A stretch of 11,329 nucleotides of DNA from a virus. Its lineage: Duplodnaviria; Heunggongvirae; Uroviricota; Caudoviricetes. Numbering within the stretch: the stretch's first letter is position 1; each line of letters opens with the position of its first letter. Under the pieces are notes generated by a model, which ran no database searches, was not told the origin of the DNA, and was given only the letters and a program-made list of their open reading frames with translations. Both the position numbers and the translations under genes were made by a program. The stretch spans positions 1 to 11,329 of the IMG/VR virus record IMGVR_UViG_2778261360_000002; one strand, written 5' to 3'. Positions 1,591 to 2,611 of the stretch are shown piece after piece.

Positions 1591-1739
1591 AAAGAAGATT
1601 TCCAATAATCAGAACAAGTCGGCTCCTGTTTAGTTACGAGCGACATTGCTCCGTGTATTCACTCGTTGGAATAAATACACAGTGCAGTGTTTATTAGTAT
1701 GCCTGTCTTTTAACCACATCAGGCTCGGTGGTTCTCGTG

Positions 1740-1800
1740 TACCCCTACAGCGAGAAAAATAGTAAAATCCTCTTACCCCTACAGTAAGAGAGTGATTTAT
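1740..1800 (+). promoter_or_regulatory. Candidate promoter region of the sieB-locus gene, with two direct TACCCCTACAG repeats (1740-1750, 1774-1784) and a TAAAAT -10-like hexamer (1763-1768)
   Basis: Direct repeats 34 bp apart read from the sequence; an AAGAGAG Shine-Dalgarno lies 8 nt before the ATG at 1801. The repeats resemble what I recall upstream of lambda sieB. Confidence 0.45.
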
Positions 1801-2295
1801 ATGTCTGATGAAAAAGGAATAATAAGTAGGATTACAGATGCAGTTTCTGGTGCCGGAGGTGCTCTGATGAGTGCTGTTGGCGCAGTAAAGGAAATCCAGA
1901 AAATGCAAATAGACTACTCAGTAAAAGAAAAAACATACGAACTTGTCGATAAGCTCATGGATGCCCAACAGCAGCAAATGTCACTTAATGAGCTTTTGAT
2001 GATTTCTAAGGACAAGATTATTGAGCTTGAAGAAAAGATAAATCGAGCCTCTAAGTGGGAAGAGGAAAAGAAAAACTATGAGATGTATACACCTACTGTT
2101 GCTACGGTGGTTTATCGTCTCAAAAAATCGGCAAATACCGGTCAGCCAATGCACTATCTTTGCGCTCAATGCTATGAATCTTCTGTGAAATCCATACTTC
2201 AATACGAAGGATTTGCACCACCTTCTAACCATAGGATGAGATGCCATAGGTGTAACGCCTCCTATCTGTTCCCTAAATCTGCATTTTCTAAATAA
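1801..2295 (+). CDS. Hypothetical 164-aa protein in the sieB position: Gly/Ala-rich N-terminal segment, central predicted coiled coil, C-terminal CxxC-x23-CxxC zinc ribbon; candidate superinfection-exclusion/defence moron
   Basis: Intact ORF on the strand opposite the pL operon, ATG at 1801 with SD (track ORF starts at GTG 1792). AT-rich relative to flanking lambda-like DNA. Lambda-like sequence resumes at the N 3' end. I do not recognise the protein. Confidence 0.65.
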
Positions 2296-2611
2296 GTGAT
2301 ATAGATTTACCTTTAATTTTCTGGCGTCCTCTGCATGTTATGCCGCGTTCGCCAGGCTTGCTGTACCATGTGCGCTGATTCTTGCGCTCAATACGTTGCA
2401 GGTTGCTTTCAATCTGTTCGTGGTATTCAGCCAGCACCGTAAGGTCTATCGGATTCAGTGCGCTTTCTACTCGTGATTTCGGTTTGCGATTCAGCGAGAG
2501 AATAGGGCGGTTAACTGGTTTTGTGCTTACCCCAACCAACAGGGGATTTGCTGCTTTCCATTGAGCCTGTTTCTCTGCGCGACGTTCGCGGCGGCGTGTT
2601 TGTGCATCCAT
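2288..2611 (-). CDS. N: N transcription antiterminator (107 aa)
   Basis: From the internal Met: [63 protein letters not shown]..., lambda N with a few substitutions. The arginine-rich N-terminal motif is intact. The track ORF extends 26 codons upstream of the true start. Confidence 0.9.

Follow-up and report, generated by a model that had tools for sequence, protein, structure and literature searches.

SieB of the phages lambda and P22 is a prophage-expressed protein of abortive exclusion that acts late in infection, and expression of sieB from the P22 prophage has been described (PMC10461980). In P22, the sas antisense RNA switches the translation of sieB from SieB to the in-frame inhibitor Esc (Ranade and Poteete, 1993, as cited in PMC7067206), a switch which, according to the account given in PMC7067206, spares P22 from its own exclusion system. 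A second protein, Rip1 ("ring interacting pore 1") of Escherichia phage HK446, was solved by cryo-EM in complex with the small terminase of Enterobacteria phage T6 (PDB 9OOX, released 4 February 2026), where 12 Rip1 chains cap a ring of 11 small terminase chains. In the passage of a 2025 meeting report devoted to it, Rip1 is described as a prophage defence protein whose structure 'suggests' a pore, and a preprint on Avs2 (10.64898/2026.04.30.721860, 2026) names it in a citation, together with TerI, among the small-terminase-sensing defence systems. Here, an open reading frame (ORF) at positions 1801-2295 of a viral DNA stretch of 11,329 nucleotides (IMG/VR record IMGVR_UViG_2778261360_000002, positions 1 to 11,329; the whole stretch is called the window in the following) was analyzed, which occupies the place of sieB in lambda and codes for Rip1.

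Rip1 shares its strategy with Tab of phage JBD26 and TerI of a Listeria prophage, which are likewise small prophage-encoded proteins recognizing a virion-assembly protein of the invading phage. For TerI, binding to the small terminase is described as well, whereas Tab is directed against the tape measure protein and prevents the assembly of tails, and Rip1 is described as pore-based. Both Tab and TerI differ from Rip1 in having dedicated anti-defence proteins. The STAND NTPases Avs1-3 resemble Rip1 in the direct recognition of a conserved packaging protein and in the oligomerization on their target; however, they detect the large terminase and are large ATPases equipped with enzymatic effectors, and neither their sequence nor their fold is related to Rip1. 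SieB has the slot, the orientation, and the promoter cassette in common with the window gene, but it is an unrelated protein, which in P22 is accompanied by its inhibitor Esc, encoded in frame, and by the antisense RNA sas; for both of these Rip1 has at most putative counterparts.

Identification of rip1 in the sieB slot

The window protein is identical to HK446 Rip1 in 163 of 164 residues (E 1.4e-105), the sole difference being residue 97, which is a tyrosine in the window and a histidine in the solved protein. An AlphaFold2 model built on an alignment of homologues (mean pLDDT 69) was compared with solved structures using Foldseek, as the sequence-only reading of this DNA had proposed. The top match was the Rip1-T6 small terminase complex 9OOX (E 1.7e-17, 99% identity), with which the fold of the helix and the C-terminal domain agrees. 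HK446 carries its rip1 in the same genomic slot behind an identical upstream cassette of 104 bp, whereas the window phage is another mosaic, combining imm434 and Hex with bet, gam, kil, cIII, and ea10 of the lambda type. By sequence, fold, cysteine motif, N-terminal segment, and locus, the window ORF is a member of the Rip1 family. Rip1 is already described and the protein is not new. The structural description and the functional guess of the sequence-only reading were good, and its statement that the protein is not recognized as any named exclusion or defence protein is out of date. Its suggestion of a superinfection exclusion or abortive infection function is supported, because the protein is Rip1, a prophage-borne defence of the abortive or late-acting kind. 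Among the family databases, PHROGs matches the protein with phrog_1244, an unnamed family of unknown function (E 4e-53), and no significant match was found in Pfam, NCBIfam, and PADLOC.

The rip1 ORF is located on the plus strand and extends from the ATG at 1801 to the TAA at 2293-2295, coding for 164 amino acids. A GTG at 1792 is in frame and leads to the 167-residue form given in the ORF list; the solved Rip1 has 164 residues. The ORF overlaps the 3′ end of N by 8 bp and has a GC content of 39.6%, compared to 47.2% for the whole window, which agrees with its description as AT-rich. In an alignment with lambda the flanks are near-identical and rip1 takes the place of sieB, with the exchange beginning and ending almost exactly at the start and stop codons, as expected from the earlier assignment of a 164-residue plus-strand ORF with lambda-like flanks to this slot. 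The same alignment shows that a segment of about 336 bp with ral and orf28 is missing from the window, so that the absence of ral noted before is confirmed. The direct repeats known from lambda are retained as well: TACCCCTACAG occurs at 1740-1750 and 1774-1784 on the plus strand (two matches compared to 0.07 expected, reached by none of 200 shuffles), and lambda carries TACCCCTACAG and AACCCCTACAG upstream of sieB with the same spacing of 34 bp.

The sieB slot is an exchange point for exclusion genes, which contains ral and sieB in lambda, a Nun-like gene in phage 434, and rip1 in the window. The N-ea10 interval of phage 434 (L131:1656-2525) holds a leftward gene for a Nun C-terminal peptide, not ral and sieB or rip1, and this supports the interval as such an exchange point.

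The protein begins with a Gly/Ala/Ser-rich amphipathic segment (codons 6-29, 1816-1887, +), of which residues 14-29 form the Gly/Ala-rich stretch seen by the sequence-only reading. According to the AlphaFold2 model, a long alpha-helix follows in the coiled-coil region (codons 39-90, 1915-2070, +) and then a beta-rich C-terminal domain (codons 93-158, 2077-2274, +), with a pLDDT of about 68-85. Of the coiled coil of roughly 60 residues proposed before, the single long helix is thus retained, its length being about 52 residues. The C-terminal CxxC-x23-CxxC motif was read correctly and consists of C121 and C124 (2161-2172, +) and C148 and C151 (2242-2253, +), which show no variation among 20 close homologues or among 63 diverse members of the family; a zinc ribbon is predicted from these four cysteines. 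Amphipathic N-termini rich in small residues are present in all 63 family members inspected, even at about 25% identity.

Proposed mechanism and alternative explanations

It is highly probable that the ORF is rip1 in the HK446 allele with one substitution, accompanied by its native upstream region, and that it codes for a lysogen-made, presumably pore-forming protein which is triggered by the terminase ring and causes abortive infection. Rip1 is a single-protein defence, which the lysogen would produce from a rightward promoter of the sieB type lying antisense within the pL operon. Once another phage has infected the cell and turned on its late genes, the small terminase of this phage would assemble into a ring, to which Rip1 would bind via its helix and zinc-ribbon part (residues ~39-164) with 12 Rip1 per 11-subunit ring. 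The ring would act as a template that gathers the twelve Gly/Ala-rich N-terminal segments into a membrane pore, and the cell would be disabled before progeny release, late in infection, when terminase appears.

The identity of the protein, the 12:11 complex, and the defence role are given by this analysis or by the deposited data. The binding to the small terminase ring at 12:11 was found for the HK446 protein in 9OOX and probably holds for the window allele with its Y97. The Rip1 chains in 9OOX comprise 124-126 of the 164 residues, the length of residues 39-164 in the model, which points to the helix and the zinc-ribbon domain as the terminase-binding part. The N-terminal Gly/Ala-rich segments would be the membrane or pore effector, as suggested by the name of the protein, the meeting report, and the sequence, and the recurrence of a small-residue N-terminus at about 25% identity supports this role. 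We also infer that rip1 is expressed in the lysogen from about position 1775 and that the carrier phage has a way of avoiding self-killing, for which a candidate is described below.

Several points weigh against this mechanism. The N-terminal segment is modelled poorly, with a pLDDT below 50 for residues 1-20 and of 52 for residues 21-30, and judging from the chain lengths it seems to be absent from the cryo-EM chains. The pore and the infection phenotype appear to go back to how the molecule is named in the PDB, to the meeting report, and to a citation of one line. The window allele has Y97 in place of the H97 of the solved protein, an exchange which may have an effect. A scan for consensus promoters called none upstream of rip1, and the −35 region bears little resemblance to the sigma-70 consensus. 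Finally, PADLOC-DB 2023 contains no model for the window protein.

The solved complex, in which Rip1 caps the terminase ring, can also be explained by a direct block: Rip1 would sequester or cap the small terminase ring and prevent packaging, as is described for Listeria TerI, with no pore being formed and the N-terminus serving assembly or localization. Prophage defences that block packaging or assembly exist with TerI and Tab, and the meeting report says, in its passage on Rip1, only that the structure 'suggests' a pore. However, 'ring interacting pore' is the name chosen by the depositors, and a conserved amphipathic small-residue N-terminus in a family of about 3,000 representatives would be hard to explain if binding alone sufficed, so that this explanation is regarded as unlikely.

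The position of the gene suggests a further explanation, namely that the protein is an analogue or a divergent homologue of SieB which halts macromolecular synthesis in the middle of the lytic cycle by the SieB mechanism. Slot, orientation, and promoter cassette are those of sieB in lambda and P22, and the cargo of the cassette is either SieB-like (78) or of the Rip1 family (47) among 127 loci. Nevertheless, BLASTP revealed no sequence similarity to lambda SieB (best E 9.4), the SieB-like and the Rip1-family cargos form separate BLAST clusters, Rip1 has a predicted zinc ribbon and lacks the hydrophobic membrane spans of SieB, and the solved partner of Rip1 is the small terminase. Homology to SieB was rejected on the first two of these grounds, and a shared mechanism is very improbable.

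On the opposite strand of rip1 lies an ORF of 88 amino acids (1981-2247, −), and RefSeq NC_049953 (phage ev099) annotates only this leftward ORF over the rip1 stretch, as gp46 (L001:4482-4748), with rip1 being unannotated. That this ORF is the real gene instead of the plus-strand ORF has next to no probability: the plus-strand product was purified and its structure solved, which rules out the antisense ORF, its family comprises thousands of proteins in which the cysteines are invariant, and the plus-strand ORF is annotated in LR597635, HK446, 720R6, and 96 E. coli genomes. The call in NC_049953 is almost certainly a mis-annotation. A DksA/TraR-like binding of RNA polymerase by a coiled coil and a C4 finger, on which the sequence-only reading speculated, and with it a reprogramming of transcription, are just as improbable and were rejected for lack of support, the likeness of a long helix followed by four cysteines being superficial and the C4 zinc finger following the coiled coil in DksA/TraR (Pfam zf-dskA_traR) not being matched by the window protein.

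The sieB-type cassette upstream of rip1

The proposed production of Rip1 in the lysogen depends on the region in front of the gene. About 100 bp before the ATG (1700-1800) are conserved near base for base upstream of sieB in lambda and P22, of hkaP in HK620, and of genes for Rip1 homologues of 45-63% identity. The P22 RefSeq record NC_002371.2 annotates the sieB promoter (L010:1239-1269) and the sieB RNA start site (L010:1276). Alignment to these features places a promoter homologous to P22 P-sieB at 1738-1768 (+) and the putative 5′ end of the rip1 mRNA at about A1775 (+), corresponding to a leader of about 26 nt. The first TACCCCTACAG repeat spans the −35 region and is followed by a −10-like TAAAAT (1763-1768, +), and the second, which contains A1775, lies in the loop of an inverted repeat CTCTTAC/GTAAGAG (1770-1790). 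Since the promoter and the RNA start of P22 map onto the repeats, these mark the promoter and the transcript start. At the place of the −10-like sequence a TAnnnT hexamer is found as TATAAT in Proteus, TAGTAT in Pantoea, TAATAT in EcoM-611R5, and TAAACT in lambda. A Shine-Dalgarno-like AAGAGAG (1786-1792, +) is located 8 nt before the ATG. As this region is homologous to the promoter and the transcript start annotated for sieB in P22, expression in the lysogen from an own rightward promoter is plausible.

The sieB-type promoter and leader with two (T/A/C)ACCCCTACA repeats, which is present in the window, is a property of the locus and not of the protein. A scan of IMG/VR with the repeat pattern revealed more than 120 loci, and the cargo downstream of the pattern was SieB-like in 78, of the Rip1/HkaP family in 47, and of a third family with 166 amino acids in 2 of 127 loci. 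This third family (MRNINMDNYPRELQ...) was found at L085 and L086 and has no Pfam match. In the Shigella phage SfII (L132:1500-1575) and in the Klebsiella phage 5 LV-2017 (L133:1502-1580), the left part of the cassette (GCCTGTCTTTTMACCACTTCAGGCTCGGTGGTA) is present while the TACCCCTACAG repeats are absent. At both sites another hairpin comes after GCCTGTCTTTTMACCACTTCAGGCTCGGTGGTA, together with a ribosome site AGGAAA and a small ORF in the rightward direction, which contains CxxC...CxxC in the Klebsiella phage.

Upstream of the promoter, the conserved element at 1700-1737 is a candidate for the structured 3′ part of a leftward sas-like RNA. It is kept near base for base in lambda, P22, HK620, Proteus, Pantoea, and EcoM-611R5, and allows two interleaved pairings, GCCTG (1701-1705) with CAGGC (1722-1726) and AACCAC (1714-1719) with GGTGGTT (1729-1735); each TACCCCTACAG repeat also sits in a hairpin. 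The paired segments are located upstream of the rightward RNA start, and any RNA role therefore belongs to the leftward transcript in the pL direction. Among 58 distinct cassettes compensatory variants were found, with GCCGGG/CCCGGC in six as well as AACCTC/GAGGTT, TCAC/GTGA, and ACAC/GTGT. In the unrefined alignment 86.7% of the cells pair, ten cells contain double changes, and none of 500 shuffles reached the covariation score. RNAalifold called only one stem of 5 bp, the first, for the 58 upstream elements, and single-sequence folding gave weak z-scores for either strand (-1.3 to -2.6). In 57 of 63 variants the fold of the antisense strand is the more stable one, a result which was discounted because it could stem from the G/U-rich composition of this strand and from the relatedness of the sequences. 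Rfam contained no family over 1550-1950, where the sole match was a chance-level RyhB on the terminator hairpin (1571-1592). In the divergent cassettes L009, L036, L067, L108, and L116, inspection by eye revealed a leftward terminator consisting of a GC hairpin and a T run ~10-30 nt beyond the GCCTG stem, which fits a discrete leftward RNA ending there.

Based on the precedent of P22 sas and on the restriction of an RNA role to the leftward strand, the cassette is proposed, with low confidence, as antisense control of rip1 during lytic growth of the carrier phage. It might, as a tentative and rather doubtful generalization, be a portable unit of expression and self-immunity for unrelated cargos (SieB, Rip1/HkaP, and the third 166-residue family) that works via a sas-like antisense RNA. 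The rightward strand would serve expression in the lysogen, and the leftward (pL) strand would give the sas-like RNA, with hairpins carrying GGGG loops and possibly a pseudoknot. During lytic growth of the carrier itself, the leftward RNA would silence the translation of the downstream cargo or re-programme it. Esc is annotated in the P22 record NC_002371.2, and a comparable product of re-programming could be an N-terminally truncated, pore-less Rip1 starting at Met35. This methionine is in frame and preceded at a plausible distance by AAGGAA (1888-1905, +), and a start there would give a possible Esc-like Rip1 without the Gly/Ala-rich segment. Little weight is given to this product, because the methionine is a leucine in more distant homologues.

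Distribution of the family and genomic context

A profile search against 1.84 billion representatives yielded 2,962 proteins with E <= 0.001, and 1,387 when the threshold was set to 1e-10; almost all have about 150-175 amino acids and match end to end. In 96 of 5,426 complete E. coli genomes an allele of at least 99% identity is present, which is chromosomal and usually adjoins N. The survey of lambdoid prophages that the sequence-only reading had suggested revealed relatives in the same antisense slot in Proteus prophages (45% identity), where it lies between the recombination genes and N or the repressor, and in a Pantoea prophage (63% identity). The homologue in phage vB_EcoM-611R5 (53% identity) is an opposite-strand gene adjoining the repressor.

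The HkaP protein of HK620, also found in HK629 and HK630, is annotated as 'putative superinfection exclusion protein'. It shares with the window protein the slot, a 99% identical upstream cassette, the length of 164 amino acids, the architecture, and the four cysteines, but only 27% identity (E 3e-13). No experimental data on HkaP were found, and its terminase specificity is presumably different.

Further relatives are encoded by Mu-like phages of Pseudomonas, the Casadabanvirus, namely DMS3 gp25 (L002:3968-4495) and D3112 orf25, likewise MP38 ORF25 and JBD30. DMS3 gp25 and D3112 orf25 show 30% identity over 145 residues (E 7e-26), keep the cysteine motif, and are placed moron-like on the strand opposite to their neighbours, between the genes of the small and the large terminase, but lack the sieB-type upstream cassette. 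A function of this family was not found in the literature searched. In Casadabanvirus a gene of a small-terminase sensor family thus adjoins the small terminase gene, and its slot is that of the defence gene tab in JBD26. As the Pseudomonas homologues sit in this slot, Tab was considered first as the identity of the window protein. It was rejected, since Tab has 83 residues and an anti-Tab partner between the terminase genes, compared to 164 amino acids, another architecture, and no partner gene. The authors of Tab describe no sequence similarity to a known protein or domain, and Tab was set apart from Rip1 by this description.

The window corresponds to the early region of a temperate phage similar to lambda, as judged from the ORF list, Pfam and PHROG scans, and the comparison with annotated records. 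Its complete mosaic was found in no phage record (best coverage 68%) and in no complete E. coli genome (best 77%), and no tRNA genes were detected in the window. The minus strand carries bet (partial, 7-450), gam (456-872), kil (827-1096), cIII (939-1103), and ea10 (DUF2528, 1176-1544; Pfam PF10800, E 3e-47). Between ea10 and the rip1 cassette, a terminator scan detected a strong intrinsic-terminator-like hairpin on the pL strand (1571-1592, −), which is identical in lambda and whose matching site is annotated as a terminator in phage 434 (L131:1486-1515). Beyond rip1, the minus strand continues with the antiterminator gene N (2288-2689; Pfam N36, E 1e-25; also in the ORF list), which is convergent with rip1, the phage 434 type hex (2963-3367), and the 434-type cI (3364-3996). 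The gene after cI is hex of phage 434, coding for a repressor-protection protein, and its ATG overlaps the stop codon of cI as ATGA; the ORF list extends it to 158 amino acids (to 3439), and the 434 record takes the start for 134 amino acids. In the rightward direction cro, cII, O, P, ren, and ninB follow in this order, then two antirepressor-like genes (7614-8291 and 8360-9088, +), and finally ninG, ninH, and Q. The two antirepressor-like genes are of the types ORF6N with P22AR_C and Rha with ANT/KilAC and lie in the nin region between ninB and ninG, where phage 434 has a Dam methylase gene, ninE, and ninF instead.

As the gene already has a name and a structure, the window adds a locus and not a discovery. 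The practical value lies in annotation, as this family of about 3,000 representatives has no model in Pfam, NCBIfam, or PADLOC (2023), and rip1 still goes by 'hypothetical protein' in each of the 96 complete E. coli genomes with this gene and was missed in one RefSeq phage record. The shared sieB-type cassette may merit a separate look. If it gives antisense self-immunity, it would be useful as a marker by which more defence cargos could be found in lambdoid prophages, and this self-immunity would explain how a phage carries a sensor of the terminase ring without killing itself.
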